From Methylonatrum kenyense (lineage in GTDB: Bacteria; Pseudomonadota; Gammaproteobacteria; Nitrococcales; Aquisalimonadaceae), in NCBI RefSeq assembly GCF_023195885.1, contig NZ_JALPKO010000010.1, positions 4,665 through 36,664 on the forward strand: a stretch of DNA of 32,000 bases, written 5' to 3'. Every line of letters begins with the position of its first letter. Position 1 is the stretch's first letter. Under the pieces are notes generated by a model. It had not been told where the DNA came from. It ran no database searches and saw only the letters and a list, made by a program, of their open reading frames with translations. Below, piece after piece: positions 5,331 to 31,832 of this stretch. The position numbers and the translations under genes were made by a program.

Positions 5331-5569
5331 GTAGGGTGGGTCAAGCGAAGCGGACCCACGCGGTGTGATCTGCTGGCAGGACGATGCAGGTTTCGGATAC
5401 GAACGGTGTTAGGACAAACCGGGTCAGGGGCGAGCATCGGCGCTGGCGGAGAGCCCGTTGCCCCGATCCTGACGGATTACACTGCGTGCCTTCGCTGCGC
5501 TTAAGGCACCCTACGACCCCGGACGCCCGGCCTGGCGTAGGGTGGGTCAAGCGAAGCGGACCCACGCGG
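5331..5569. repeat. REP cluster A (3 copies)
   Basis: Copies at 5331..5370 (forward, stem GTGGGTC/GACCCAC), 5475..5514 (reverse, stem GTGCCTT/AAGGCAC) and 5537..5569 (forward, truncated tail). Family consensus: GTAGGGTG-N5-AAGCG(A/C)AGCG-N5-CACGCGGTGTGATCC. Confidence 0.9.
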
Positions 5570-5611
5570 ATTTCAGCAGTCAACGCGCCACCGGGCGCAT
5601 GGAGCACCACG

Positions 5612-6532
5612 ATGAGCAACCCGATTGTTGATGTCACCGCCGAGGCGTACGCCAACCCCGGCGACCAGTTCGAACGGGCGCTGGAGGACGGCCGCATCCT
5701 GCGGTTCGAACCCGGCATGCTGCCGCTGCCGTCGGAGGATGACCTGAACTTCCTGCGCGAGGAGGTCGGCGCCCTGATCACGCTGAAGAACATCAGCTAT
5801 CACCCCGACGGCGACTACATCACCGGCATGAAGAAGGTGGGCGATACCGAGCAGCGGCTGCGCGCCATCCTGCGCAACTACAGCGACACCGTGAACAGCT
5901 TCCTTGGCGCGGCGCTGCCGCATTACGCGGTGAGCTGGCACCAGCAGAAGGTCAACTTCCGCCCGGTGCAGGAGAAGGGACGGCAGATCAAGCGTCATTC
6001 GAACAACGAACTGCTGCACGTCGACGCCTTCCCGGCCGGCGCCACCCACGGCCGTCGCCCGTTGCGCTTCTTCACCAACATCAACACCAGCGAGCCCCGC
6101 ATCTGGCGTATTGCCGAACAGTTCGACCAGTTGTACGCCGCCTATGCGAAGGAGGCCGGCATCGACACCAGCATGTCGGTGCGCGGCAACGCGGCCGAGC
6201 GGGCCTGGTCCGGAGCGCTGGCCGGTCTGGCCCGGCTGGGGCTGCCGCAGCTCCAGGTGATCGGTGACACCTCGCCCTACGACCGGGCCATGCGCAAGAT
6301 GCACAACTGGATGAAGGATAACGATGCCTTCCAGCAGGATCCGGGCAGGGGCGAGGAACTGGCGTTCCAGCCGTTCGAGAGCTGGGCGGTCATGACCGAC
6401 GCGGTCAGCCACGCGGCGCTATCCGGCCAGCATGCGCTGGTGGCCACCTATTACGTCGAGCTGGATGCCTGCCGGCTGCCGGAGCGTGCGCCCTACAACG
6501 TGGTTGCGCGCGGCGCCGATCAGGCGGCCTGA
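5612..6532 (+). CDS. kdoO: Kdo hydroxylase-like Fe(II)/2-oxoglutarate dioxygenase (KdoO family)
   Basis: A 306-aa product with an H136-x-D138 ... H267 facial-triad arrangement (LLHVDAF ... AVSHAAL) and a general resemblance to the Kdo_hydroxy family. It sits between hldD and kdkA, with a 1-nt stop/start overlap with kdkA. The start is set at ATG 5612, because the upstream part of the ORF is REP sequence. Confidence 0.65.
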   Translation: MSNPIVDVTAEAYANPGDQFERALEDGRILRFEPGMLPLPSEDDLNFLREEVGALITLKNISYHPDGDYITGMKKVGDTEQRLRAILRNYSDTVNSFLGAALPHYAVSWHQQKVNFRPVQEKGRQIKRHSNNELLHVDAFPAGATHGRRPLRFFTNINTSEPRIWRIAEQFDQLYAAYAKEAGIDTSMSVRGNAAERAWSGALAGLARLGLPQLQVIGDTSPYDRAMRKMHNWMKDNDAFQQDPGRGEELAFQPFESWAVMTDAVSHAALSGQHALVATYYVELDACRLPERAPYNVVARGADQAA

Positions 6533-7260
6533 TGCAGGCGGCGGAGTTCCGCGACGGCCGTTACCGCTACATCTACGATCAGTCCCTGCCGGCGCCGCCG
6601 GCGGACTGGCTGTTCGAGCCGGCGACGCTGGCGCAGAACGATCTGGTGCTGGAACAGGGCGGGGGCCGCGGCACCGTGATCTTCATTTCCGACCCTTACC
6701 AATCCGGCCGGCAGTGGGCTTTGCGGCATTACATGCGTGGCGGCTCGGTGGCCCGCATGTTCGGCGATCGCTACCTGTGGAGCGGGTTGCATGACACCCG
6801 CGCCTGGCGTGAATGGCACTACACCTCGCAACTGTTCGATGCCGGCCTGCCGGTCGCGCGGCCGGTCGCCGGTCGCGTGGTCCGCGAGGGTCCATTGTAC
6901 CGGGCCGACTTCATCACCGTCCGCGTCCCGGGCGCGGCCTCGTTTGATGACCTGCTCAGCGCCGGCGAAGTCCCCCTGGAGACCTGGTCCGCCATCGGCA
7001 GGACCATCCGCCGCTTCCACGACGCCGGCGCCTGGCACAGCGACCTCAACAGCAGGAACATCCTGGTCGGCCCTGACCCGGAAACCGTGCACATCATCGA
7101 CTGGGATCGCGGTGAGTGGCGCACCGGCAACGGCAAGGAATGGCGTGACGCCAACCTGGACAGGCTCAAGCGCGACCTCGAAAAACGCCTGCGCATCAAG
7201 GACGTCTGGGCCTACACCCCCCAGGGCCACCAGGCCCTGCTCGACGGCTACAAGTCATAG
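6532..7260 (+). CDS. kdkA: 3-deoxy-D-manno-octulosonic acid (Kdo) kinase
   Basis: A 242-aa product with WALRHYMRGG, the catalytic-loop motif HSDLNSRNIL and IIDWDRG, as in KdkA-family kinases. LPS-core context. Confidence 0.85.
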   Translation: MQAAEFRDGRYRYIYDQSLPAPPADWLFEPATLAQNDLVLEQGGGRGTVIFISDPYQSGRQWALRHYMRGGSVARMFGDRYLWSGLHDTRAWREWHYTSQLFDAGLPVARPVAGRVVREGPLYRADFITVRVPGAASFDDLLSAGEVPLETWSAIGRTIRRFHDAGAWHSDLNSRNILVGPDPETVHIIDWDRGEWRTGNGKEWRDANLDRLKRDLEKRLRIKDVWAYTPQGHQALLDGYKS

Positions 7261-7300: not shown

Positions 7301-7684
7301 GGATCACACCGCGCGGATCCGCTGCGCTCGATCCGCCCTACGCGGCCCCAAGCGGCACCGGGCCCTGGGTCGTCCGAAAACCTTACTTGTCCGAAAACCG
7401 TCCTTGTACCGCCCCCGAATTACACCGCGCGGATCCGCTGCGCTCGATCCGCCCTACGCGGCCCCAAGCGGCACCGGGCCGTAATCGGGATTCGTAGGGT
7501 GCATTAAGCGAAGCGAATGCACGCGGTGTGATCCGCCCCGATCGCGGCAACGCGCTCTCGGTTACCACGGCCGCCAGCCCTCACCCCGGCCTTGTCTGGT
7601 CCGAACACCCCCCATGTCCGAAAACCTTCCTTGTCCCGCCAACGGATCACACCGCGCGGATCCGCTGCGCTTGATCCACCCTAC
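7301..7684. repeat. REP cluster B (4 copies plus short GTCCGAAAACC-type repeats)
   Basis: Copies at 7301..7341 (rev), 7418..7457 (rev), 7494..7534 (fwd, GCATT subtype) and 7644..7684 (rev). GTCCGAAAACC motifs lie at 7372, 7389 and 7617, with a further one at 7724 just outside the feature's right edge. Confidence 0.9.
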
Positions 7685-9966: not shown

Positions 9967-10732
9967 GGATCACACCGCGTGCATTCGCTGCGCTTAATGC
10001 ACCCTACGAAAACCGCGCCGGTGCGAGCCGCGTAGGGCGGATCGAGCGCAGCGGATCGGCGTGGTGTGATTGGGGTCGGGACAAGGAAGGTGTTCGGGCA
10101 GGAAGGTGTTCGGACCCGACAAGGCCGGGGACGGGCGTTGGCCGCGGAGGCGGGCGTAGGGTGGGTCAAGCGCAGCGGACCCACGCGGTGTGATCTGTTG
10201 GCGGTATGGATCAACACGGCCTCCTGCCGGTGAGATCTGATGACGGGACAATAAAAGGTTTTCGGACAAGGACATGGTGCGGACGAGGCAGGCTCGGGGC
10301 GGACGTTGGCGGCGGTAATCGAAAGCCTGTTGCCGCGGTCATGGCGGATCACACCGCGTGCATTCGCTTTGCTTAATGCACCCTACGACGAGCGTGTTTC
10401 GTTGCGTAACGGCGCGGGGATGCGGCGTTGGACCCGTCAATCGTCGCCCGGGTTTTGGTGGGACGGCCGGATACCGGCACAAGAAGCACTGTGAAGCCAT
10501 CCCTGACAGCCAGATGATCCCATCCTTGGGATCACCTTTCCTTGCCGATATCCGGCCTAGCACTATTCATAGTTGATCCTTTTTTTCAGTGCAATACTTT
10601 CTGTTAATACTTTGGGGTTACTCCCGGACAGTTGGCGCGGTTCCGCCAGCGCAGACTGAAGCGTCCGCGGGGTCTGGAGCCCGATTAAAGCGGATCACAC
10701 CGCGTGCATTCGCTTCGCTTAATACACCCTAC
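9967..10732. repeat. REP cluster C (5 copies)
   Basis: Copies at 9967..10007 (rev, GCATT), 10032..10070 (fwd, degenerate), 10156..10195 (fwd, GGGTC), 10346..10386 (rev, GCATT) and 10692..10732 (rev, GCATT-like). The flank GGTAATCGAAAGCCTGTTGCC is repeated at 9936 and 10315. Reverse-orientation GGACAAGGAAGGTGTTCGG motifs lie at 10079-10115. Confidence 0.9.
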
Positions 10733-13090: not shown

Positions 13091-14344
13091 TCAGTTGCCC
13101 AGCAGGCCCCCGAGTAGATCATCGATCAGACCACCGAGGATGCCGTCCACCAGACCAAGCAGGTCGGCCAACAGGTTGCTGTCAGCTTCCAACAGGTCCC
13201 CCAGGACCTCGCCGAGCGGACTGTCGTTATCGAGGATGTCTTCCAGCAGTCCCGCATCCAGCAGGTCCAGCGCGTCCGTCCCCAGCAGGTCTTCGACAAC
13301 ACCTTCCACCGATTCGGTCAGCGTCTCGAGAATCTGATCCGGATCACCGCTCTGCAGCGCCGCGCCAACATCGTCCAGGATCGCCTGGACGCCGGCCAGG
13401 GCATCGTCGTCGACGATGTCATCGAGTTCACCGTCGAGTCCCAACACGTTGTTGAGTAGACCGTCGAGCAAATCCTCGATCAAAACGCCGGTGGCTTCGA
13501 GCACATCCCCGAAGAACTCGTTGCCGTCAATCAACTCGACCACCGCAATGGTGTTCAGGACCGTGGTGTTTACGACTTCGATCAGGTTTCGGTAAAGGTC
13601 GGCAGTTTCCTCGTTGCCCGCGATCTCAGCCCGCAGGTCCTCGGTCAGAACGGAGAGCTCCTCAAGCACCTCCTGCAGCGCATTGACAGTGGTGATGTCC
13701 GCGAACGTGTCTCCGCGCGCGAAGAGGATCAGATCGTCAAGGCTATCGAGCCCGATGTCGTCGATCTCATCCGGCGCAGCGACCATCTCGCCGCAAGTCC
13801 CGCTTCCGCCGAGGGCCAGCAGCAAGCCGTCCAGGAACCGGTTGGTGGCGACATCCAGTTGCCGCCCGGCATCCACTGCCGCCTCGTCCAGATCGGCGAC
13901 GTTCTGCTGATGCTGATAATCGCCCAGAAATGTGGCAAGCAGCGCGTCCGGCGAATCGACCAGCGCCGCAAGCCCCTGCGAAATGCAGACTGTGCCGTCG
14001 GCCAGGTCGTCTTCCGCGCCGGTACCGGTATCCAGATCGCGGATGATTCCCTCGGCAAGAATGTCTTCGAGCAGGAAGGCCGTCAGCGTCTGCGCCGGGT
14101 CCAGCGGCCCGGCGAGACCTTCCGGCGCATCGCCGTTGTCCCCGTCGCCATTCTCGCCGTTGCCGTTGTCGCCACCGTTATCGCCGTTGCCGTCCAGGCC
14201 GTCATCGCCATTCTCAACCTGGCCATTGTCGTCGCCGCTCCCGGACGAGCTGCTGCCGCCGCTGCTGCTGCCGCCGCATCCGGCCAGTGCGAGCGGCACG
14301 GCCAGTGCAAGGCAGAGCAGTAGGTATCGAACAGATGTATTCAT
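13091..14344 (-). CDS. Secreted lipoprotein, extremely acidic and lysine-free, with a G/S/D/N-rich N-terminal low-complexity region
   Basis: MNTSVRYLLLCLALAVPLALAGC is a lipoprotein signal with an L-A-G-C lipobox. GGGGA lies just upstream of ATG 14344 and a terminator lies downstream. The rest is D/E/L/G-rich, and I find no K anywhere in the translated ORF. Confidence 0.7.
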   Translation of the reverse strand: MNTSVRYLLLCLALAVPLALAGCGGSSSGGSSSSGSGDDNGQVENGDDGLDGNGDNGGDNGNGENGDGDNGDAPEGLAGPLDPAQTLTAFLLEDILAEGIIRDLDTGTGAEDDLADGTVCISQGLAALVDSPDALLATFLGDYQHQQNVADLDEAAVDAGRQLDVATNRFLDGLLLALGGSGTCGEMVAAPDEIDDIGLDSLDDLILFARGDTFADITTVNALQEVLEELSVLTEDLRAEIAGNEETADLYRNLIEVVNTTVLNTIAVVELIDGNEFFGDVLEATGVLIEDLLDGLLNNVLGLDGELDDIVDDDALAGVQAILDDVGAALQSGDPDQILETLTESVEGVVEDLLGTDALDLLDAGLLEDILDNDSPLGEVLGDLLEADSNLLADLLGLVDGILGGLIDDLLGGLLGN

Positions 14345-14377
14345 TGTCCCCACCCCTGTTTTCGTTTTCCGTTAGCC

Positions 14378-16936: not shown

Positions 16937-17278
16937 TTGCTCACCGATGACCTCCGCTTCAAGGCCCTGAAGCATGTGCAGGACAACCCGCAGCTCACCC
17001 AGCGCGAACTGGCGGGGCTGCTGGGCGTGAGCCTGGGGCGCACCAACTACTGCCTGCAGGCGCTGATCGAGAAGGGCCTGCTCAAGGCGGCCAACTTCCG
17101 CAACAGCAAGAACAAGCGGGCGTATATGTACAAGCTCACGCCCAGCGGGCTGCGCGAGAAAACCGCCCTGGCGGTTCGTTTCATCAAGCGCAAGGAACTG
17201 GAACGACAGGCGCTGCTCGGCGAGATCGCCGAATTGCAGCGCGAACTTGAGCAGCAGCCGGCGGAGGAAAAAGCGTGA
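16937..17278 (+). CDS. EPS-associated MarR-family transcriptional regulator
   Basis: LTDDLRFKALKHVQDNPQLTQRELAGLLGVSLGRTNYCLQALIEKGLLKAANFRNSKNKRAYMYKLTPSG matches the small MarR_EPS-type winged-helix regulators. There is no in-frame ATG, so a TTG at 16937 is proposed as the start (uncertain). Confidence 0.75.
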   Translation: MLTDDLRFKALKHVQDNPQLTQRELAGLLGVSLGRTNYCLQALIEKGLLKAANFRNSKNKRAYMYKLTPSGLREKTALAVRFIKRKELERQALLGEIAELQRELEQQPAEEKA

Positions 17279-17775
17279 AACGCTGGTACGCCGCACAATG
17301 CAAGCCGCTGCAGGACGAACGTGCCGAATTCAACCTGGCGGCGCAGGGTTTCGAGGTTTTGCGGCCGCTGGCCAAGGTCCGCAAACGTCGCCGCGGCAAG
17401 GTCTGCACGGTCATCGAATCGCTGTTCCCGCGTTACCTGTTCGTGCATCTGGACGATGTAGCCGAAAACTGGGCGCCGATCCGTTCAACGCTTGGTGTCG
17501 CGGGGCTGGTTCGCTTTGGTGGCCGGGCCGTCGCGGTGCCCGGACGGATGATCCACGACATTCGCTGTCGCCTGCAGGGCACAGATTGCTGTGTCGATCT
17601 CACCGGCCAGAATACGATTGCGCCGGGCACGAAAGTGACCATTGAAACCGGGGCCTTCGCCGGCCATGAGGCGATCTTCCACGCAAGAAAGGGTGAGGAC
17701 CGCGTGATCGTGCTGCTCAACATCATGCAGCAGACGCAACGTATCACCCTCGACGAAGCCGCCATCGCCCGATAA
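17275..17775 (+). CDS. rfaH: RfaH-like NusG-family transcription antiterminator
   Basis: MKRWYAAQCKPLQDERAEFNLAAQGFEVLRPL...ESLFPRYLFVHLD is the NGN domain. It is followed by a KOW-like GTKVTIETGAFAGHEAIF. The GTG start overlaps the upstream stop (GTGA). Confidence 0.85.
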   Translation: MKRWYAAQCKPLQDERAEFNLAAQGFEVLRPLAKVRKRRRGKVCTVIESLFPRYLFVHLDDVAENWAPIRSTLGVAGLVRFGGRAVAVPGRMIHDIRCRLQGTDCCVDLTGQNTIAPGTKVTIETGAFAGHEAIFHARKGEDRVIVLLNIMQQTQRITLDEAAIAR

Positions 17776-17798: not shown

Positions 17799-18190
17799 GT
17801 AGGGTGGATCAAGCGCAGCGGATCCACGCGGTGTGATCCCCGTTGGGAAGCCCCCGGCAGCGTAGGGTGCATTAAGCGAAGCGAATGCACGCGGTGTGAT
17901 CCGTCCCGAACGGCGCCACGCCGGCAACACCGCAATTTCATGGGGGTACACCCCAGGCGGTAGCGTGCCCGAACAAAAAATATCGCCGCCCAATAGCCCG
18001 GGCCCCATGGCTAAAATTGGCCCTCGTAGGGTGGATCAAGCGAAGCGGATCCACGCGGTGTACGCCGCCATGAAAATGCTCCAACGCCCGCGGTCCACGG
18101 CGAACCCACGCGGTGTCATCCGTACGAATTATCCCGCGCATCAGGCCCGCGCAGGGTGCATTGAGCGCAGCGAATGCACGCAGTGTGATC
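17799..18190 (+). repeat. REP cluster H (4 forward copies)
   Basis: Copies at 17799..17839 (GGATC), 17862..17902 (GCATT), 18026..18063 (GGATC, start of a ~100-bp composite unit ending about 18120) and 18151..18190 (GCATT-like). Confidence 0.9.
17956..17967 (+). promoter_or_regulatory. ops element (RfaH recruitment site), exact 12-mer
   Basis: GGCGGTAGCGTG read directly on the + strand, identical to the E. coli ops consensus GGCGGTAGnnTG. It lies 181 nt downstream of rfaH, and all downstream genes to 30345 are on the + strand. Confidence 0.7.
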
Positions 18191-19027: not shown

Positions 19028-19124
19028 GTAGGGTGGATCAAGCGCAGCGGATCCACGCGGTGTACTCCGCCACGAACATGGTCCACCGCTCATGGTTCAC
19101 GGCAAATCCACGCGGTGTGATCCG
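19028..19124 (+). repeat. Composite REP unit (REP plus GTGTACTCCGCC...ATCCACGCGGTGTGATCC extension)
   Basis: Collinear with 18026..18120, 20406..20499 and (truncated) 23096..23165. Confidence 0.85.
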
Positions 19125-20405: not shown

Positions 20406-20499
20406 GTAGGGTGGATTAAGCGAAGCGAATCCACGCGGTGTACTCCGCTATCGAAATGGTCCAACGCCCGTGTCACGGCGGATCCACGCGGCGTCATCC
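20406..20499 (+). repeat. Composite REP unit (GGATT subtype)
   Basis: GTAGGGTGGATTAAGCGAAGCGAATCCACGCGGTGTACTCCGC...GGATCCACGCGGCGTCATCC. This is the last REP before the AT-rich leader of the phosphonate cluster. Confidence 0.85.
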
Positions 20500-20640: not shown

Positions 20641-21957
20641 GTGACTGACCAAGGAAAAACCGTTTACGTCGGCATGAGCGCCGACCTCGTCCACCCCGGC
20701 CACCTGAACATTTTGTCCGAGGCTCGCAAGCTCGGCCGCGTGGTGGTTGGCCTGCTGACCGATAGGGCCATTGCCAGCTACAAGCGCCTGCCACACATGA
20801 CCTTCGAGCAGCGCAAACAGGTGGTTGAAAACCTCAAGGGTGTCGATGAAGTCATTGCCCAGGACACGCTGGATTACGTCCCGAACCTCCGGCAAGTCAA
20901 ACCCGATTACGTGGTGCACGGTGATGACTGGCGTCAGGGTGTGCAAAAGCAGACCCGGCAGCGGGTGATCGATGCCCTTGCCGAATGGGGTGGCGAACTG
21001 GTTGAGGTGGCGTACACGCCCGACATCTCTTCCACGCAATTGAACACCAGCGTGAAGTCCTACGGCGTCACGCCTGGCCAGCGCTTGAGCCTGCTTCGCC
21101 GCATCATCGACGCCAAGCCTCTGGTGCGTTTCATGGAAGCTCACAATGGCCTCACCGGGCTTATTGTCGAGAACATCCATGAGGACAAGGACGGCCAGCG
21201 TCTGCAATTCGATGGCATGTGGCTCTCCAGCCTTACCGACTCCACCGCCAAGGGAAAACCGGATATCGAGGCGGTGGACGTTACCTCCCGCATGCAGACG
21301 CTGAACGACATCGTCGAGGTGACCACCAAGCCGATCATCTATGACGCCGATACTGGAGGGCGGCCCGAACACTTTGCCTTTACGGTGCGCACGCTGGAAC
21401 GCTTTGGCGTGTCGGCCGCCATCATTGAGGACAAGGTGGGCGCGAAAAAGAACTCGCTGTTCGGCACCGAAGTGGCTCAGACCCAGGCCACCATCGAAGA
21501 GTTCTGCGAGAAGATCGAGGTGGGCAAGCGGGCAAAGGTCACCAGCGACTTCATGATCATTGCCCGCATCGAGAGCCTGATCCTGGACAAGGGTCTCGAT
21601 GATGCCGTGGAGCGTGCCAGAGCCTACATCGCCGCCGGTGCCGACGGCATCATGATCCACAGCAGGCAGAAGACCGTCGATGAAATCGCCGCGTTCTGCG
21701 CCGAGTTCAGCAAGTTCGACACCAAAGTGCCATTGATCGCCGTGCCCTCCAGCTACAACCACGTTTATGACCATGAGTTGGAAAAGATGGGCGTGGATGT
21801 CGTGATCTACGCCAACCAGCTTTTGCGCAGCGCCTACCCAGCCATGCTGGAGACCGCCCGCTCCATCCTCACCAACGGCCGATCCCAGGAAGCCGATGAC
21901 CGGTTGCTGTCGATCAAGGACGTGCTGACCCTCATTCCGGAGGGGGACTGGCTGTGA
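20641..21957 (+). CDS. Bifunctional cytidylyltransferase-domain / phosphoenolpyruvate phosphomutase fusion (Fom1-like architecture)
   Basis: The N-terminal ~130 aa carry [20 protein letters not shown] (HxGH) and [10 protein letters not shown] (RTxGISTS-like), as in TagD-type cytidylyltransferases. The C-terminal ~300 aa carry the PEP mutase signature [21 protein letters not shown] start at 20641 is assumed. Confidence 0.85.
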
Positions 21958-23099
21958 TTTCACCCAAGGCATTCTATGAAGCATTGGCCGAGAGTGGCGT
22001 CAACTTCGCGGTCGGCGTGCCGGATTCCCTGCTCAAGGAATTCTGCGCCTTCGCCGACGCTGCACTGCCCGCAGATCGACACCTGATCGCCGCCAACGAA
22101 GGTACCGCGGTCGGCATCGCAGCCGGCGTGCACTTGGCCACGGACGGTATCCCGCTGGTCTACTTGCAGAACTCGGGTCTGGGCAACACGGTGAACCCGC
22201 TGTTGTCGCTGGCGGACAAGGAGGTCTACGGCATTCCGCTGGTGCTGCTGATCGGTTGGCGCGGCGAACCCGGCGTCAAGGACGAACCCCAGCACGTCAA
22301 GCAGGGGCGCGTTTCCCCGGCCATGTTGGAGTCAATGGAAATTCCGTTCGAAGTGCTGGACGGCAATGCCCAGGAAGCCGACCGCATCGCCCGCGCCGCC
22401 GTTGAGAAGGCCCGAGAGCGCAGCGCTCCGGTTGCAATCCTTGTACGCAAGGGCGCGTTCGGCAAGGCGGAAGAACTCCGCCAGCCGACGCCGCGCGGTG
22501 ATGACCTGTTGGAGCGGGAACAGGCCATTGAAGTAGTGACCGGCACCCTGCCACCCGCAGCCACCGTCGTTTCCACCACCGGCCACATTTCGCGGGAACT
22601 CTATGAGCAGCGCGAACGGGCCAGCCAGGACCGCGCAAGTGATTTCCTTACGGTCGGCTGCATGGGGCACTCATCGCAGATTGCCTTGGGCATCGCGCTG
22701 ACCAAGCGCGATTCACCGGTAGTGTGTCTCGACGGCGATGGCGCGGCGCTGATGCACATGGGCGGCCTCGCCACCGTCGGCACCAGCGACGCGGAGAACT
22801 TCGTGCACGTGGTCCTGAACAATGGCGTGCACGGCTCGGTGGGGGGCCAGCCCACGGTCGGTTTTGACATCAGCCTCACCGATGTGGCCCGTGCCTGCGG
22901 CTACAAGACCGTTCTGGGCCCAGTCACCAGCGAAGCCGATATTCGCAACGCCGTTACCGAACTCCTCCAGGCCAAGGGCCCCACGTTCCTGGAAGTCCAC
23001 GTCAAACCCGGCGCCCGCGCCGACCTCGGCCGCCCAAAAGAAACCCCGGCCGAAAACAAGCGCCTTTTCACCGAACGCCTCAGGAGCATCTCTTCGTAG
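21954..23099 (+). CDS. Phosphonopyruvate decarboxylase (ThDP-dependent)
   Basis: A 381-aa product. [30 protein letters not shown] is a typical Ppd/AepY/Fom2 N-terminus, and the ThDP motif [11 protein letters not shown]...[13 protein letters not shown] is present. A 4-nt ATGA-type overlap with the mutase gene. Confidence 0.88.
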
Positions 23100-23165
23100 G
23101 GTGCATAAGCAACGCGAATGCACGCGGTGTACTCCGCCAAAATGGAACCATCCAACCCACGGATA
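23096..23165 (+). repeat. Composite REP unit (truncated) between ppd and the ADH gene
   Basis: GTAGGGTGCATAAGCAACGCGAATGCACGCGGTGTACTCCGCC.... The ppd stop codon TAG (23097..23099) lies inside the REP 5' end. Confidence 0.8.
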
Positions 23166-23175
23166 ACCATCCAAA

Positions 23176-24367
23176 ATGCCCGAACTAGATGACATCAAAC
23201 CACCATATTCCCCGGCAAAATCCTGGTCCTTCCACAACCCGGTGCGCATCCACTTCGGCCGCGACGTACGCGCCAAACTGCCCGAGGAAATCGGTAGCCG
23301 CCGTTGTTTGATCGTCTCAACCCAACGCGGCCGAAAGCAATTCACCGAGGATCCACACCTGGGAGCAATTGCCGCCGCCACCGGCCACAACTGGCTGGAC
23401 ACTGTTACCGAAAACCCAGGCCTGCATTACCTGCAAGGGGAAATCGACCGTCTGGCGGGCAAGCCCTTCGACGCCATCATCGCCTTCGGGGGCGGCAGCG
23501 CCATGGACGCAGCCAAGGTACTGGCCATCGCCTTGTCCGACGCCGGTACGGGGAAAACCCTGGCAGACCTGCTTGCCAACCCGGATCTGCACAAGGATGC
23601 CCAGCCAAAGCCTGTGTACGCGATCCCCACCACGTCAGGTACCGGCAGCGAGGTAACACCCTTTGCCACGGTGTGGGACCACGAAACCAAGAAAAAACAC
23701 TCCCTGGCGGGGCCTGCAATGTTCCCCCATGCGGCCTATGTGGACCCGGCGCTGACCGACACTGTGCCACCTGAAGTGACACTTTCCACAGGCCTGGACG
23801 CAATCAATCAGGCCGCAGAGTCCATCTGGAACAAGAACGCGATCCCGATAACCCTGGATTTCGCCACCCGGGCGCTCCAACTGGGATTCGCTGCACTTCC
23901 CAAGCTGTTTGAGGGAACCGGCGGACAGGGAGAGCGGGACCAGATGAGCGAGGCTAGCCTGTTAGCCGGGTTGGCGATCAGCCATACCCGGACTGCCTTG
24001 TGCCACTCGATCTCGTATCCGCTCACCGCGCATTTTGGAGTGCCTCATGGGTTGGCGTGTGCGTTTACCATGCCTGCAGTTTTAGAGCTAAATGCGAACT
24101 TTGATGACGGGCGATTGGAAAGGTTGGCGCAACAGTTATTGGCGAACAATGCAGAGCTGACTTTGTTAACAACGGAATTTCGCCGACTTAATGAGAAGGT
24201 TGCTGTCTCCAGTATTATCAAAGATTACTGCGGGACGATCGAAAATATAAAGAATCTTTGTGCGGAAATGTATACTCGAGGACGGTCTGATCAAAATATG
24301 ACCAACGTTGATCAGAGTGTGCTTTTGTCGTTAATCGAGAGCGCTTGGTTCTCAAGGACACTTTCCC

Positions 24368-24378
<11 letters not shown>
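23176..24378 (+). CDS. Group III iron-containing alcohol dehydrogenase, probable phosphonoacetaldehyde reductase (PhpC/FomC-like)
   Basis: GGGSAMDAAK and the His-rich CHSISYPLTAHFGVPHGLA motifs of Fe-ADHs. It is positioned directly after the mutase and decarboxylase. Confidence 0.75.
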
Positions 24379-28067
<3,689 letters not shown>

Positions 28068-28084
28068 GTCAGGAGTTCGATCTC

Positions 28085-29374
28085 TTGAGTCTTCGGAAAA
28101 CTCGAGTTGCTATCGTCATTCCGGCGAGATACGGCTCGTCCCGGTTGCCAGGAAAACCTCTGGCGGATCTCAATGGTAAGCCGATGATCCAGCACGTCTA
28201 CGAACGGGCGTGCGAGGTGCCATCCTCTGATCGTGTTCTGGTAGCAACGGACGATGCCCGTGTTGCAGAGGCGGTGGAAGGCTTCGGCGGCCAATGTGTC
28301 ATGACGTCGATCCAGCATCCTTCGGGGACGGATCGACTGGTTGAAGTCATGGACCATGTGGAAGCGGATGTCTACGTGAACCTGCAGGGTGACGAACCGC
28401 TGGTAAGGCCGTCGGATGTCGAAATGCTGTGCAAGGGAATGATTGCGGGTGACGGTATCGAAGTCGGCACCTTGTGCCATCCGATCGGTCATGACGAGGC
28501 CGAGAATCCGAGCACGGTAAAGGTTGTGCTGGGTGAAGGAGGCGATGCGCTGTACTTCAGCCGTTCGCCCATCCCGTATCCGAGAGACGGTGAAGGACAC
28601 ACAGAATACCGGAAGCATGTAGGAGTCTACGCGTACAGCCGGTCTGTCCTCATGAAATACTCGACGCTTCCTGTGCCTGAGATCGAGCGCTTGGAAAAGC
28701 TGGAGCAGTTGCGACTGTTACACGCCGGTATACGGATTCGGGCCTTTCAGGTGGAGCCCACTGCTCCTGGGGTGGATACCCCCGAATGCCTGGAGCGCGT
28801 ACGGGCGCTGATGCTTGGGTCCGTTCTGCCGCAACCAGCGAGACTTGAGGATGTAAAGCTGGTTATCACGGATGTGGATGGCGTCCTGACAGACGGTGGC
28901 CTCTATTACAACGACCAAGGGGAATGCCAGAAGCGCTTCAATGTGCGTGATGGTCTGGGAATACGGTTGCTGGAAGAATGCGGGATAAAAGTCGCGGTAG
29001 TCTCTGGTCGGGACTCCCCTGCATTGCAACGAAGAGTCAGTGACCTTGGCATTAGCCTATGCCGATTCGGTATCAAGGATAAGGCTTCCGTGGCCCGTGA
29101 GCTCATGGTGTCATCGGGCGCAGGTCCCGAGGAAACGGTGTGTGTCGGAGATGATGTTATTGATATTCCCCTGTTCTCCGAATGTGGCCGGTCTTATGCG
29201 GTCGCTGATGCGCCGGCATACGTTCGATCTTTTGCAACAGACGTGCTTACCCTGCCGGGCGGACAGGGAGCATTTCGGGAACTTGCCGACGCAATCCTGA
29301 TTGCTCGGGGGCGAGGCGATGTCCTCTGCTCCGTTGCAGGTTTCTCATCCGTAATGAGTGGAGTCGCACAGTGA
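28085..29374 (+). CDS. Fused CMP-Kdo synthetase (KdsB) and Kdo8P phosphatase (KdsC)
   Basis: N-terminus: VAIVIPARYGSSRLPGKPLADLNGKPMIQHVYERA, as in KdsB. C-terminus from about aa 255: LVITDVDGVLTDGGLYY...GDDVIDIP, the HAD KdsC motifs. A TTG start at 28085 with AGGAG 9 nt upstream is assumed. Confidence 0.85.
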   Translation: MSLRKTRVAIVIPARYGSSRLPGKPLADLNGKPMIQHVYERACEVPSSDRVLVATDDARVAEAVEGFGGQCVMTSIQHPSGTDRLVEVMDHVEADVYVNLQGDEPLVRPSDVEMLCKGMIAGDGIEVGTLCHPIGHDEAENPSTVKVVLGEGGDALYFSRSPIPYPRDGEGHTEYRKHVGVYAYSRSVLMKYSTLPVPEIERLEKLEQLRLLHAGIRIRAFQVEPTAPGVDTPECLERVRALMLGSVLPQPARLEDVKLVITDVDGVLTDGGLYYNDQGECQKRFNVRDGLGIRLLEECGIKVAVVSGRDSPALQRRVSDLGISLCRFGIKDKASVARELMVSSGAGPEETVCVGDDVIDIPLFSECGRSYAVADAPAYVRSFATDVLTLPGGQGAFRELADAILIARGRGDVLCSVAGFSSVMSGVAQ

Positions 29375-30345
29375 AATCCGTACCCAAGGAAAACGAAGTG
29401 TCCGCCATCGAGACAGCCAAGGAGGTCTTTGCAGAACAGGCAACCGCTTTGCGCACTACCGGAGAAGCTGTCGGCGTTGAGTTCGAGCAAGCGGTTTCGA
29501 TGATTCTCAATGGAAAAGGGCGTGTGATTGTCTCTGGGATGGGCAAGTCCGGTATAATTGGTCAGAAAATAGCTGCAACGTTAGCGTCTACCGGAACACC
29601 CAGTTTTTCTGTTCATCCCGCCGAGGCATATCACGGTGACCTTGGGATGATAACCAACCAAGACCTCGCAATCCTTATTTCCTACAGCGGGGAAACTGAA
29701 GAGGTCATCCGTTTAATTCCTTCGTTGCGTCACTTTGGGACATCGATTATTGCGCTAGTTGGCAATAAGGAATCGACTCTGGCAAAAAATGCAGATGTTG
29801 TTTTGGATGTGTCGGTCCAACGAGAGGTCTGTCCAAACAATCTGGCCCCGACGACGTCAACGACGGTAGCTCTGGCTATGGGAGACGCCCTCGCCGTCGC
29901 GCTGATTAACCGGCGAGATTTCAAGCCCGATGATTTCGCGGTTTTTCATCCCGGTGGAAGCCTTGGACGTAGATTGCTGACGACGGTTAACGACGTCATG
30001 CATCGTGATTTACCGACCAATAGCCCTCGAGACAGCATTCGGGATGTAATTGTGGAGATGACAAAAGGCGGGCTTGGAACGTCTGTCGTGGTGGAGAAAG
30101 GCAGGTTGCAAGGCATTATCACCGATGGAGACTTGCGTCGTTCTCTGTTTTCCCATGATGAAATTAATGACCTTTGCGCGAAGGATATTATGACACCTGA
30201 GCCAATGACCGTTTGTGGGAAGACTAAATTCGCCGAGGCAGAAATGATCATGCTCGATCAGAAAATAACCTCCCTTGTCGTCGTAGACGAAGAATACCGC
30301 CCTCAGGGAATTTTAAAACTGCATGATGCCGTATTAGTCGGTTGA
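29371..30345 (+). CDS. kpsF: Arabinose-5-phosphate isomerase (KdsD/KpsF; SIS plus tandem CBS)
   Basis: GKGRVIVSGMGKSGIIGQKIAATLASTGTPSFSVHPAEAYHGDLGMI is near-identical in pattern to E. coli KdsD/KpsF. There is a C-terminal CBS pair. The GTG start overlaps the upstream stop (GTGA). Confidence 0.9.
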   Translation: MKSVPKENEVSAIETAKEVFAEQATALRTTGEAVGVEFEQAVSMILNGKGRVIVSGMGKSGIIGQKIAATLASTGTPSFSVHPAEAYHGDLGMITNQDLAILISYSGETEEVIRLIPSLRHFGTSIIALVGNKESTLAKNADVVLDVSVQREVCPNNLAPTTSTTVALAMGDALAVALINRRDFKPDDFAVFHPGGSLGRRLLTTVNDVMHRDLPTNSPRDSIRDVIVEMTKGGLGTSVVVEKGRLQGIITDGDLRRSLFSHDEINDLCAKDIMTPEPMTVCGKTKFAEAEMIMLDQKITSLVVVDEEYRPQGILKLHDAVLVG

Positions 30346-30378
30346 AATCATAATAAACAATGATCCGCCGAAGAAGAG

Positions 30379-30790
30379 TTAACTATAATTGGTCTTCGCG
30401 GAGCGGTTTCGACAGCACACAACGGAGATTCTCACGTCTGTTGTTGAAGCGAAACTCTGTCTCTTTAAATTGAGATAGAAGGTTTTCGAGCGTATTCTGT
30501 CGCAGCCGGCGAGTCGCCGCGTGGTAGCGAAACTCCAGAACGAGTCGAGACCATTGATATAGTTATTGCCTCGAGTGAAATGATTGTCCGAGTAACGAAT
30601 ATGGGCATAGGAGGCGTAGTCTACATCAACCAAGATTTATTAACCGGGTCAGTGACCGGAGAGCATGACACTGTCGAGACTGACATCGCCGAGAATGGCG
30701 CGCTGGGGCTCGAAGTAGGATTCATCGACTTCGACATGGCTGCGCAGCGACGAGTCAGGCGCAGGTAGATCGCGTTGATCGATCACACCT
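30379..30790 (-). pseudogene. IS1595-family (ISXO2-like) transposase remnant, disrupted
   Basis: Minus-strand translation gives ...HVEVDESYFEPQRA..., then a stop, then ...YINGLDSFWSFATTRRLAGCDRIRSKTFYLNLK.... These match the EVDEsYfG and hiNgiEsFWs.aKrrl blocks of IS1595 transposases, but with stops and deletions. The remnant may extend to about 30900. Confidence 0.6.
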
Positions 30791-30980
30791 TAAGCTTGGT
30801 ATCCATCGAACCGCATTATTTGCTGTCAAGTTCACCGAGAAGCCACACAAGAGCGGCGAATTATCGCCTCTGATATTTTCGCATGTTCGTAGCAGCGATT
30901 CCACAGCGTGCTTAGGACATTGAGCTGCCTTTGGATTCTCTGCTTCTCAAGTTACAAGAGAAAATTATTAGGAGCCAACG

Positions 30981-31832
30981 ATGAAGAATCCTGATCTTTA
31001 TGTTTGTGGTTTCGGGTGGTCTGGCTCCGGTGCTTTAATTGATTTTCTTTTAGATAGTGGGGTATACAAAAAATTCCCCGGCGGTGAGGTCCAGTTTATA
31101 AAAATAAATGGAGGATTTCTAGATCTTTTTAAGGCCGCGAAAGAAAAAAAAGAATTTTCTGCAGATGATCTGGATATTTTTTTAAGGCATTTTACCGGAA
31201 ATCTTAATAAAGAAGTTAATTATTCATTGAAAGCAAACCAGAAAAGTGCGAAGCTATGGACAAAAGCGGGGCCTGCTTATTCGAGCTGGATTTTCGAATC
31301 ATTTAGTAGAATGGTTGGGGTCGATGGCAGGGGTGAAAATCCCTCATCGGTTGTCGAGTCGATTTATCATAAATTTATAGATATTTTCAGGTTCTCAGGC
31401 TCGTCTTTTGTTCTAGATCAGGCGATTAGGCCAACTAATTTAGATCCGTTAAATTTTGTTGGAGATGGGAAAGTAATTATTGTAGATAGGGATCCAAGGG
31501 ATAGCTATTATGAGCGGCGCGCTTTTCAAGGATCTAGATTTACTTTGACCCCGGAGCAGTACGCCGAGAATTATTTAAAAAGAAGAAGAAAAATGAAGAG
31601 GTCACTTGCGGGCAATCTAAGTGACCGCGTTAAGATCGTCGGGTTTGAAGAGTTTGTTCGCTCTCCTGACGTGCGTTTTGAGATTTGTCAATGGGTTGGT
31701 GTTCAACATCATTTCAAGCCGGAAAGATTTAACCCGGACGTGTCGAGAAATAATATTGGAATACATAAAGGCTCAGATGAGCCGTGGTTTTATGAACGCT
31801 TGACGGATATTTTAGATCTGAGTGGTCCGTAA
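30981..31832 (+). CDS. Sulfotransferase-like protein (tentative)
   Basis: A 283-aa product at about 38-40% GC. The N-terminal LYVCGFGWSGSGALIDFL resembles the 5'-PSB loop and VIIVDRDPRDSYYE resembles the 3'-PB RDPRD motif of PAPS-dependent sulfotransferases. AGGAG lies 7 nt upstream of the ATG. Confidence 0.45.
   Translation: MKNPDLYVCGFGWSGSGALIDFLLDSGVYKKFPGGEVQFIKINGGFLDLFKAAKEKKEFSADDLDIFLRHFTGNLNKEVNYSLKANQKSAKLWTKAGPAYSSWIFESFSRMVGVDGRGENPSSVVESIYHKFIDIFRFSGSSFVLDQAIRPTNLDPLNFVGDGKVIIVDRDPRDSYYERRAFQGSRFTLTPEQYAENYLKRRRKMKRSLAGNLSDRVKIVGFEEFVRSPDVRFEICQWVGVQHHFKPERFNPDVSRNNIGIHKGSDEPWFYERLTDILDLSGP

Follow-up and report, generated by a model that had tools for sequence, protein, structure and literature searches.

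Alternating sugar/alditol-phosphate chains of group 2 capsules are built by Cps3D and Cps7D of Actinobacillus pleuropneumoniae and Bcs3 of Haemophilus influenzae, which hold TagF-like, glycosyltransferase (GT) and helical or tetratricopeptide repeat (TPR) domains in one polypeptide, as described for the TPR, TagF-like and GT polymerase Cps3D (PMC11666461). [quoted passage not shown] We propose, with moderate confidence, that CMP-HEP and CMP-Kdo are both used by this one TagF-like/Kdo-transferase enzyme to make a surface glycan, most likely an alternating Kdo-HEP chain.

Among the entries of the Protein Data Bank (PDB), Cps3D is the best match of the M. kenyense transferase both by structure and by sequence. 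The differences from the Cps3D group are nevertheless substantial, namely that (i) the predicted supply is CMP-HEP, provided by ppm-ppd-adh, instead of CDP-glycerol or CDP-ribitol; (ii) the partner module is of the CMP-Kdo type and not a UDP-sugar GT; (iii) the helical domain is central and not terminal; and (iv) the N-terminal subdomain could not be aligned on account of its divergence, the Arg of the 'PTWR' element being Gly throughout the family of the window's transferase. A second group of relatives is found in kps loci of the Kdo/glycerol-phosphate type (E. coli K24 and K122/K117-like; Pseudomonas, Rahnella, Acidovorax), which share homologous TagF-like and KpsS/KpsC-like modules and the order transferase-kdsA-kdsBC-kpsF, whereas they carry a TagD-like cytidylyltransferase of ~130-157 aa and Gly at transferase residue 115 in place of the HEP pathway and the Ser115 found in the window. 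For E. coli K24, which we take to be a Kdo-glycerol-phosphate polymer, the presence of alpha-Kdo and a locus with TagD-like, TagF-like, TPR and unclassified GT genes could be confirmed, while its composition was not found in our literature search.

With regard to the phosphonate, the same fusion of a PF01467 domain to the phosphoenolpyruvate (PEP) mutase Ppm occurs in Fom1 of the fosfomycin pathway. CMP-HEP is a transient intermediate for methylation there, whereas it would serve as a transfer donor in M. kenyense, since no Fom3, FomD or Fom4 is present. PntC systems and the HEP conjugate of the Stackebrandtia exopolysaccharide are similar in that a Ppm-fused nucleotidyltransferase activates the phosphonate for surface attachment, but such systems mostly employ 2-aminoethylphosphonate (AEP) and LicD-like transferases or lipid enzymes. 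The Kdo-transferase-like module, finally, resembles WbbB (GT99), KpsC/KpsS (GT107) and KrkA (GT140) in its GT-B-like fold, its (K/R)xHP motif, the Gln belonging to QxxxD and the NSxVG phosphate-binding loop, but differs from them in that its subclade has Gly for the nucleophile Asp and Gln for the ribose-binding Glu. In the searchable literature, neither a TagF-like/Kdo-transferase partner nor in-chain HEP was found described for phosphonoglycan systems, and nothing relevant came up on a Kdo/HEP glycan or on ppm together with a glycerophosphotransferase. An earlier interpretation of the DNA that had been made from its letters alone (the sequence-only reading) knew of no Kdo-linked phosphonate capsule locus of this architecture, and our search likewise returned no description of one. 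The cluster would be a combination of a TagF-like capsule polymerase with CMP-phosphonate tailoring, each of a known kind, whose joint occurrence was not found described in that literature.

Predicted phosphonate and CMP-Kdo pathways of the cluster

The seven genes of the cluster are:

20641..21957, + strand: bifunctional cytidylyltransferase-PEP mutase (cytidylyltransferase [CyTase] domain ~nt 20656-21060, Ppm domain ~nt 21082-21942; Pfam, NCBIfam)
21954..23099, + strand: Ppd, phosphonopyruvate decarboxylase (TIGR03297; TPP_enzyme_N and TPP_enzyme_C)
23176..24378, + strand: Fe-dependent alcohol dehydrogenase, predicted phosphonoacetaldehyde reductase (Fe-ADH and ADH_Fe_C)
24368..27250, + strand: two-module transferase of 960 aa (Pfam, AlphaFold2 [AF2] model, Foldseek, module profiles)
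27225..28067, + strand: KdsA, Kdo-8-phosphate synthase of the capsule-locus type (NF009109)
28085..29374, + strand: fused KdsB-KdsC (KdsB, CMP-Kdo synthetase, ~nt 28085-28819; KdsC, Kdo-8-phosphate phosphatase, ~nt 28838-29329)
29371..30345, + strand: KpsF/KdsD arabinose-5-phosphate isomerase (TIGR00393; SIS and CBS)

All seven ORFs are present on the + strand as the sequence-only reading had listed them, and each of its four stop/start overlaps was confirmed. The ppm/ppd (21954-21957) and kdsBC/kpsF (29371-29374) pairs overlap by GTGA, the GTG start of the transferase at 24368 lies 11 bases before the end of adh and precedes its stop codon (24376-24378), and the ATG start of kdsA at 27225, which is favoured by the profile alignment and an upstream GGAG, precedes the transferase stop at 27250. 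Profile searches with every product recovered all predicted domains.

The first three steps of phosphonate biosynthesis that had been assigned to the cluster all found profile matches, that of the Fe-ADH lying under its specific cutoff. The Ppm domain scored 396 bits with TIGR02320 (cutoff 319.55) and E 5e-59 with Pfam PEP_mutase, and it contains the signature EDKxxxxxNS at residue 263, whereas Ppd reached 467.5 bits with TIGR03297 (cutoff 312.5). A role of the Fe-ADH as phosphonoacetaldehyde reductase is supported by the position of its gene directly after that of Ppd. Fused N-terminally to Ppm is a CTP_transf_like domain (PF01467, E 1e-14), which matched PDB entry 5x3d, the Fom1 CyTase domain, at E 1.6e-61 with ~70% identity over 135 residues. 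Such fusions make up 23.6% of Ppm proteins, and the fused domain of Fom1, which moves CMP from CTP onto HEP to give CMP-HEP, is a direct precedent for the formation of CMP-HEP postulated for the M. kenyense fusion (PMC6697681, Rice et al.).

No aminotransferase, Fom3/Fom4/FomD-like, MpnS-like, nonribosomal peptide synthetase (NRPS) or ATP-grasp genes were found in the 32-kb window, so that the absence of an AepZ-type aminotransferase stood. The related claim that small-molecule tailoring genes are lacking held for Fom3, Fom4 and MpnS, but has to be qualified in view of a sulfotransferase-fold gene downstream of the cluster that tracks HEP pathways elsewhere (see below). Because of the CyTase similarity, the presence of Ppd and Fe-ADH and the lack of a transaminase, it is well supported that the predicted pathway product is HEP and that it is activated as CMP-HEP, although the enzyme activities are deduced from homology. 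With neither an aminotransferase nor such tailoring genes in the window, AEP or an antibiotic as product was rejected.

The complete four-enzyme CMP-Kdo pathway was likewise recovered, KdsB and KdsC being encoded by a single ORF, with all four enzymes either above curated cutoffs or with the expected subfamily as top match. In this branch, KdsA reached 518.6 bits with NF009109 (cutoff 457), KdsB 316 bits with NF009905 (plus CTP_transf_3) and KpsF, with its SIS and CBS domains, 348 bits with TIGR00393 (cutoff 203.7); KdsC matched NF007019, TIGR01670 and Hydrolase_3. KdsA is 68-76% identical to Pseudomonas and Acidovorax capsule-locus copies. Besides the two-module transferase, the operon contains no glycosyltransferase.

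The two-module transferase and its relatives

One large enzyme with a TagF-like and a Kdo-transferase-like module, as predicted before, held under profile, structure and comparative tests. The TagF-like module spans ~nt 24428-25417, the helical TPR-like middle ~nt 25550-26137 and the Kdo-transferase-like module ~nt 26165-27202, with the codons of Ser115 at 24710-24712, of Q761-G765 at 26648-26662 and of KKHPLC at 26747-26764. In the AF2 model (28-sequence alignment; predicted local distance difference test [pLDDT] 82.8), two alpha/beta modules are split by a helical region at ~395-590, and Foldseek ranked Cps3D at the top and, after it, TagF, TarL, generic GT-B epimerases and CMP-Kdo-bound WbbB. 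An NCBI protein of M. kenyense matches the transferase at 100% identity. The preferable start is GTG 24368, which has AAGGA ten bases before it, as the public gene model (P0001, 899 aa) begins at Met62, 61 codons late, and thereby omits the confidently modelled, family-invariant residues F25, W28, N29, F31 and Q32.

The N-module scored 31.5 bits with Pfam Glyphos_transf (cutoff 22.1), and its family profile matched Cps3D (E 1.4e-15), TagF (5e-8) and TarL (4e-6). This profile alignment begins at GxPR and takes in the donor-site elements YAPTW, R-x-H and DYS(S/G)xxxD; R209-P-H211 and S252..D257 agree with key residues of Cps3D (PMC11666461). As to the catalytic His of the HGTP loop, the N-terminal subdomain aligned to no solved TagF-like protein, and the family has an invariant QY[S/G]xxK. 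No stand-alone TagD/TarI-like supply gene occurs in the window, where the only PF01467 domain is the one fused to Ppm. The C-module scored 21.9 bits with Capsule_synth (cutoff 20); among glycosyltransferases its family profile matched only WbbB (1.7e-6) and KpsC (9e-4), a similarity that is also seen in a Foldseek match to 8csb (E 1e-5). It retains the CMP-binding motif (K/R)xHP as K794-K-H-P-L-C799.

An exhaustive HMMER search of 1.84 billion representatives returned 1150 relatives of the transferase, dozens of which are two-module proteins of ~870-1240 aa, and full-length identity reached 35-36% in only three clusters (P0002, P0006 and P0007). The window proteins were compared with 80 loci around such relatives; the pattern used for the single genome scan, SD[YFM]SG[AVS]IFD, excludes the DYS element of the window protein itself, which reads SDYSGFIFD. 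In most two-module relatives, a gene for a small TagD-like cytidylyltransferase lies ~400 nt upstream, and several of these TagD-linked loci show the order transferase-kdsA-kdsBC-kpsF with Kds proteins 68-76% identical to those of M. kenyense. One Pseudomonas locus (L011) encodes TagD, the transferase, KdsA, KdsBC, KpsF, KpsC, KpsS and a KpsD-like exporter, and is, because of the last three, regarded as a true kps-type capsule locus. A split version of the transferase lies in kps region 2 of E. coli SCU-102 (L093, NZ_CP051753.1), between kpsMT and kpsS/kpsC. A 131-aa gene in the same region (11594-11989 of L093), annotated as 'pantoate--beta-alanine ligase', is read by its position and size as the TagD-like cytidylyltransferase of this TagF-like/KpsS-like cassette, and the ORF sizes of L093 agree with K122/K117-type loci (PMC13171606).

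The search for the gene order in other genomes, which had been suggested along with the sequence-only reading, showed the ppm-ppd-adh-transferase cassette in further lineages. CyT-Ppm, Ppd and Fe-ADH are encoded directly upstream of the gene for the two-module protein in a member of the Rhizobiales (L007), a Pseudoxanthomonas metagenome-assembled genome (L038) and Stenotrophomonas daejeonensis (L043), whereas the metagenomic contigs of P0006 and P0007 carry Ppd and Fe-ADH at this place (and the 3' end of ppm in P0007), with KpsF or KdsA close by. Linkage of ppm-ppd-adh to a two-module gene thus occurs in at least five lineages besides M. kenyense. The context of P0002 (L001) has no ORFs in the 1 kb upstream. 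The S. daejeonensis homolog (10004-13624 of L043) has 1206 aa, including an extra C-terminal LicD domain, and is surrounded by an ABC-2 transporter pair, GT4, GT2, a methyltransferase and an acyltransferase-3/SGNH protein. Given the TagD-linked relatives, the Pseudomonas locus and the split E. coli version, the window looks like the same scaffold with an exchanged donor module; it is one case of a recurring design, in which the CDP-glycerol supply gene of a Kdo/alditol-phosphate scaffold is swapped for the CMP-HEP pathway.

In an alignment of 53 N-modules, one column only splits the two donor groups, namely residue 115 in the near-invariant motif LQY[S/G]xxK, where all 9 ppm-linked members carry Ser and all 20 TagD-linked members carry Gly (Fisher P 1e-7 by a naive test, the lineages not being independent). 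TagD was seen with no Ser-type member and ppm with no Gly-type member, and the Ser-type sequences are scattered at several places in a crude neighbour-joining tree. In the profile alignment, residue 115 could not be matched to the TagF catalytic loop.

Downstream of kpsF, the window contains a further gene that probably belongs to the functional unit of the cluster:

30981..31832, + strand: ORF283, a sulfotransferase-fold candidate extra member annotated as 'hypothetical protein M0534_11630' (weak Sulfotransfer_3 match, fold)

ORF283 scored 17.2 bits with Sulfotransfer_3, below the cutoff of 27, and contains the motifs CGFGWSGSGA and RDPRD; the top Foldseek matches of its model (pLDDT 72) were all sulfotransferases that use 3'-phosphoadenosine-5'-phosphosulfate (PAPS), at TM ~0.45. 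It matches the C-terminal half of 647-682-aa proteins in the S. daejeonensis (E 1e-23) and Pseudoxanthomonas (7e-20) loci. Further homologs are encoded in L004 and in the P0006 and P0007 contigs. Overall, homologs were found in 6 other ppm-linked loci and in 0 of ~74 non-ppm loci (Fisher P 4e-4). Since the fold matches PAPS sulfotransferases, ordinary sulfation is the simpler interpretation, and ORF283 probably sulfates the glycan or HEP, as judged from its model and motifs, whose agreement with this enzyme class is modest; alternatively, it may act in phosphonyl transfer. Sulfated Kdo-containing capsules of halophilic Gammaproteobacteria provide a precedent for the former (PMC11766843). Members of the family (L004, L038, L043, L083/84, L086/87, L091/92) are often fused to a helical N-terminal half of ~330 aa, and the family accompanies ppm-ppd-Fe-ADH across ABC-type, kps-like and Wzx/Wzy assembly systems. 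The spacer between kpsF and ORF283 (30346-30980; 635 nt) is of intermediate GC content and has no + strand ORF, its only ORF being one of 84 aa on the minus strand without Pfam match. It might be a remnant of the N-terminal half of an ORF283 homolog, of which tblastn gave no trace.

In composition, the cluster is a mosaic with the transferase inside a patch of its own:

24050..27700, no strand assigned: low-GC recombinant patch (GC content at third codon positions [GC3] ~0.38-0.47, compared with 0.70-0.85 in the host-like flank)

Both ppm and ppd have a GC3 of 0.78-0.79 and the first ~280 adh codons one of ~0.70, close to the 0.71-0.85 of host genes. The value falls from 0.70 to 0.45 at ~nt 24016-24076 and stays at ~0.45 over the last ~120 adh codons; it is 0.43 for the transferase gene, 0.38 for the first ~160 kdsA codons, 0.5-0.65 for the remainder of kdsA as well as for kdsBC and kpsF, and 0.36 for ORF283. 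The ~3.6-kb patch that holds the transferase hence has its junctions within adh and within kdsA. As both fall inside genes, the imported patch was already in the order adh-transferase-kdsA, which disfavours an accidental juxtaposition. On account of these junctions and of the recurrence of the arrangement in other lineages, chance juxtaposition was rejected.

The predicted glycan and its alternatives

According to the proposed mechanism, Ppm would convert PEP into phosphonopyruvate, Ppd would turn this into phosphonoacetaldehyde, Fe-ADH would reduce the latter to HEP, and the CyTase domain would form CMP-HEP from HEP and CTP as a first donor, while KpsF, KdsA, KdsC and KdsB would provide CMP-Kdo as the second. 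The N-module would transfer the hydroxyethylphosphonyl group from CMP-HEP onto a Kdo hydroxyl, giving a phosphonate ester and CMP, and the C-module would add Kdo to the free 2-OH of HEP. Repetition of the two steps would yield an alternating Kdo-HEP chain, a phosphonate analogue of Kdo/glycerol-phosphate capsules, which the helical middle might hold as the TPR domain does in Cps3D. That a TagF-like enzyme joins HEP and Kdo, as had been suggested, is supported by the gene linkage and by the fold and profile matches; from these data we infer the product, the donor use of the N-module, polymerization as opposed to a single addition, the anomeric configuration of Kdo and the export route. Our confidence in the formation of HEP and CMP-HEP is higher than that in the full statement of a Kdo-HEP polymer, whereas that in a polymer over a decoration is lower.

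Several observations weigh against this proposal. On the supply side, the top NCBIfam model for the Fe-ADH, TIGR03405 (Phn_Fe-ADH), gave 324.6 bits and thus stayed under its cutoff of 423.7. No export genes (KpsMT/KpsDE, Wzm/Wzt) and no KpsC/KpsS were found across the 32-kb window, so that the term 'capsule' is unproven. The S. daejeonensis setting, with its other glycosyltransferases and LicD, would fit a decoration better than a homopolymer backbone. Common descent is a confounder of the Ser115/Gly115 split, and ppm is lacking from the 10 kb to each side of the Ser-type members L008 and L041, nor does the Ser-type P0005 have donor genes in its 6.5 kb. The Asp of QxxxD is replaced in the window protein (Q761-S-T-R-G765), and with Gly at this essential site Kdo transfer by the C-module is not assured. 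The retaining beta-Kdo transferases of GT99, GT107 and GT140 share QxxxD and (K/R)xHP, and the Asp, described as 'absolutely conserved', forms a covalent Kdo adduct (PMC12887879). The wider two-module family has QxxxD and NSGVGxE, and Asp is kept in the other 24 aligned members as well as in L007, L038 and L043. P0002, P0006 and P0007 share the Asp-less state with the window protein, and all four have LQST[RK]GLE[ED] and NSGV[GA]LQ with the motif Gln and KxHP retained. As this variant motif is conserved across sequences that are only 35-40% identical, it suggests a working enzyme with altered chemistry. Without the Asp nucleophile, it is a reasonable guess that the C-module may use a direct inverting displacement, which would lead to alpha-Kdo. 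Gly for Asp is also present in the stand-alone C-module proteins P0019 and P0026 (549-574 aa, 38-39% identical; LQSPPG, LQSPAG), so that the variant occurs outside fused enzymes as well.

The same replacements, QSTRG for QxxxD and NSGVGLQ for NSGVGxE, could alternatively mean that the C-module is inactive and that the protein transfers HEP only, with CMP-Kdo being used by KpsC/KpsS-type enzymes beyond the window. Exchange of the Asp for Ala, Cys or Asn inactivates a retaining Kdo transferase (PMC12887879). We consider this distinctly unlikely, as the CMP/Kdo-binding elements (K/R)xHP, motif Gln and NSG are kept in the four divergent sequences, the conservation of the variant motif itself implies selection, 3/3 subclade members with context have Kdo genes nearby, and alpha-Kdo capsules require an inverting enzyme that has so far not been identified (PMC13171606, a survey of E. 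coli capsules). A more serious contender, if still an unlikely one, is decoration or capping, in which a single Kdo and/or HEP would be added to an O-antigen, LPS (lipopolysaccharide) core or capsule made elsewhere. It would be in line with the lack of kps export genes in the window, with the LPS-core genes (KdoO, Kdo/WaaP kinase) and WbpM located upstream, and with the ABC-2 pair, GT4, GT2 and the LicD domain on the homolog in S. daejeonensis. WbbB caps O-antigen chains. Kdo-transferase modules act outside capsule polymerases, with WbbB and KpsC as characterised retaining enzymes (PMC12887879), and the phosphonates of known phosphonoglycans are conjugates (PMC8942020). However, the operon dedicates four genes to the supply of CMP-Kdo and contains no further glycosyltransferase, the fusion of the two catalytic modules with a helical domain resembles that in the proven polymerase Cps3D, and the glycerol-type counterparts are encoded in the serotype-specific region of kps loci, all of which argue against a decoration.

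We attach little probability to the idea that the TagF-like module takes another CDP-alcohol or CDP-glycerol donor and that HEP is attached by a different enzyme, for example by ORF283 acting on CMP-HEP. In its favour, the ORF283 family tracks ppm, and a Wzx/Wzy-type locus (L091) encodes the Ppm fusion, Ppd, Fe-ADH and an ORF283 homolog without a TagF-like gene. Yet no TagD-like gene is present in the window, adh lies next to or overlaps the transferase gene in six lineages, Ser or Gly at residue 115 goes with the donor type, and the fold of ORF283 points to PAPS sulfotransferases. It is even harder to credit that the phosphonate genes lead to a small molecule of the fosfomycin type and lie next to the Kdo and transferase genes by an accident of horizontal transfer. 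While the close similarity of the CyTase domain to that of Fom1 and the compositional mosaic could be taken in this sense, there are no Fom3/Fom4/FomD-like, NRPS, ATP-grasp or other tailoring genes, the recombination junctions fall inside adh and kdsA, the genes overlap, and the same linkage is found in at least five other lineages.

The alternating Kdo-HEP chain can be extended, tentatively, to a more specific proposal: a polymer with C-P bonds in its main chain, where HEP bridges Kdo residues, made with an inverting Asp-less module, with the Gly-to-Ser change marking the donor switch and with a modification by the sulfotransferase-fold protein. If true, such a 'phosphono-teichoic-acid-like' glycan should not be cleaved by phosphodiesterases as usual, and the polymer would represent a natural phosphate-to-phosphonate swap in a capsule backbone, with a bearing on resistance to phosphatases, on the cycling of phosphorus and on glycoengineering by means of modular TagF-like polymerases. 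In PMC8942020, HEP esterified to polysaccharide is cited as one of the major forms of phosphonate in marine dissolved organic matter, and the inventory there lists just two families of HEP-branch gene clusters whose products have been isolated; the known producers of HEP-glycans and the known transfer enzymes are few. The locus type, which recurs in several Proteobacteria lineages and metagenomes, offers a testable route, in which a Fom1-type CyTase would make CMP-HEP and a TagF-like module would install it. The Asp-less Kdo module is, moreover, a candidate for the inverting Kdo transferases that alpha-Kdo capsules call for (PMC13171606).

Neighbouring genes and minor features

The remaining genes of the window encode NqrA/B, KdoO, a Kdo/WaaP kinase, GroES/EL, a WbpM-like dehydratase, a toxin-antitoxin pair, RfaH and a glucose/sorbosone dehydrogenase (GSDH). 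KdoO (Kdo hydroxylase) and the Kdo/WaaP-family kinase are adjoining (5384-7260), which suggests a modified, Ko-containing and phosphorylated LPS inner core in M. kenyense. A 420-aa ORF without Pfam match on the minus strand (13091-14353) is flanked by the WbpM-like gene and a HepT/MNT toxin-antitoxin pair. Two further features lie upstream of or within the cluster:

17275..17775, + strand: RfaH paralog (TIGR01955 154 bits, cutoff 144.5), a weakly linked candidate regulator of the co-directional genes that lie downstream
7515-7536, 10344-10365(-), 10690-10711(-), 18047-18068, 19049-19070, 20427-20448 and 23116-23137: REP-like 22-mer, in spacers or at 5' ORF edges

An exact ops core (GGCGGTAG) is present on the + strand at 17956-17963, ~180 nt past the RfaH paralog, where about one exact match is expected by chance; the RfaH/ops site is situated upstream of the co-directional gene run that ends in the cluster. 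In the 20-32 kb region, scans for promoters and terminators gave counts not above those of shuffled sequences. The host's repetitive extragenic palindrome (REP)-like 22-mer GAATCCACGCGGTGTACTCCGC occurs in 7 copies in the window at up to 3 mismatches (0 expected), including one upstream of ppm and one in the ppd-adh spacer, and none beyond 23137, so that the low-GC DNA is free of it. As one copy falls inside the GSDH ORF, the listed start of the latter (19033) is probably too far upstream.

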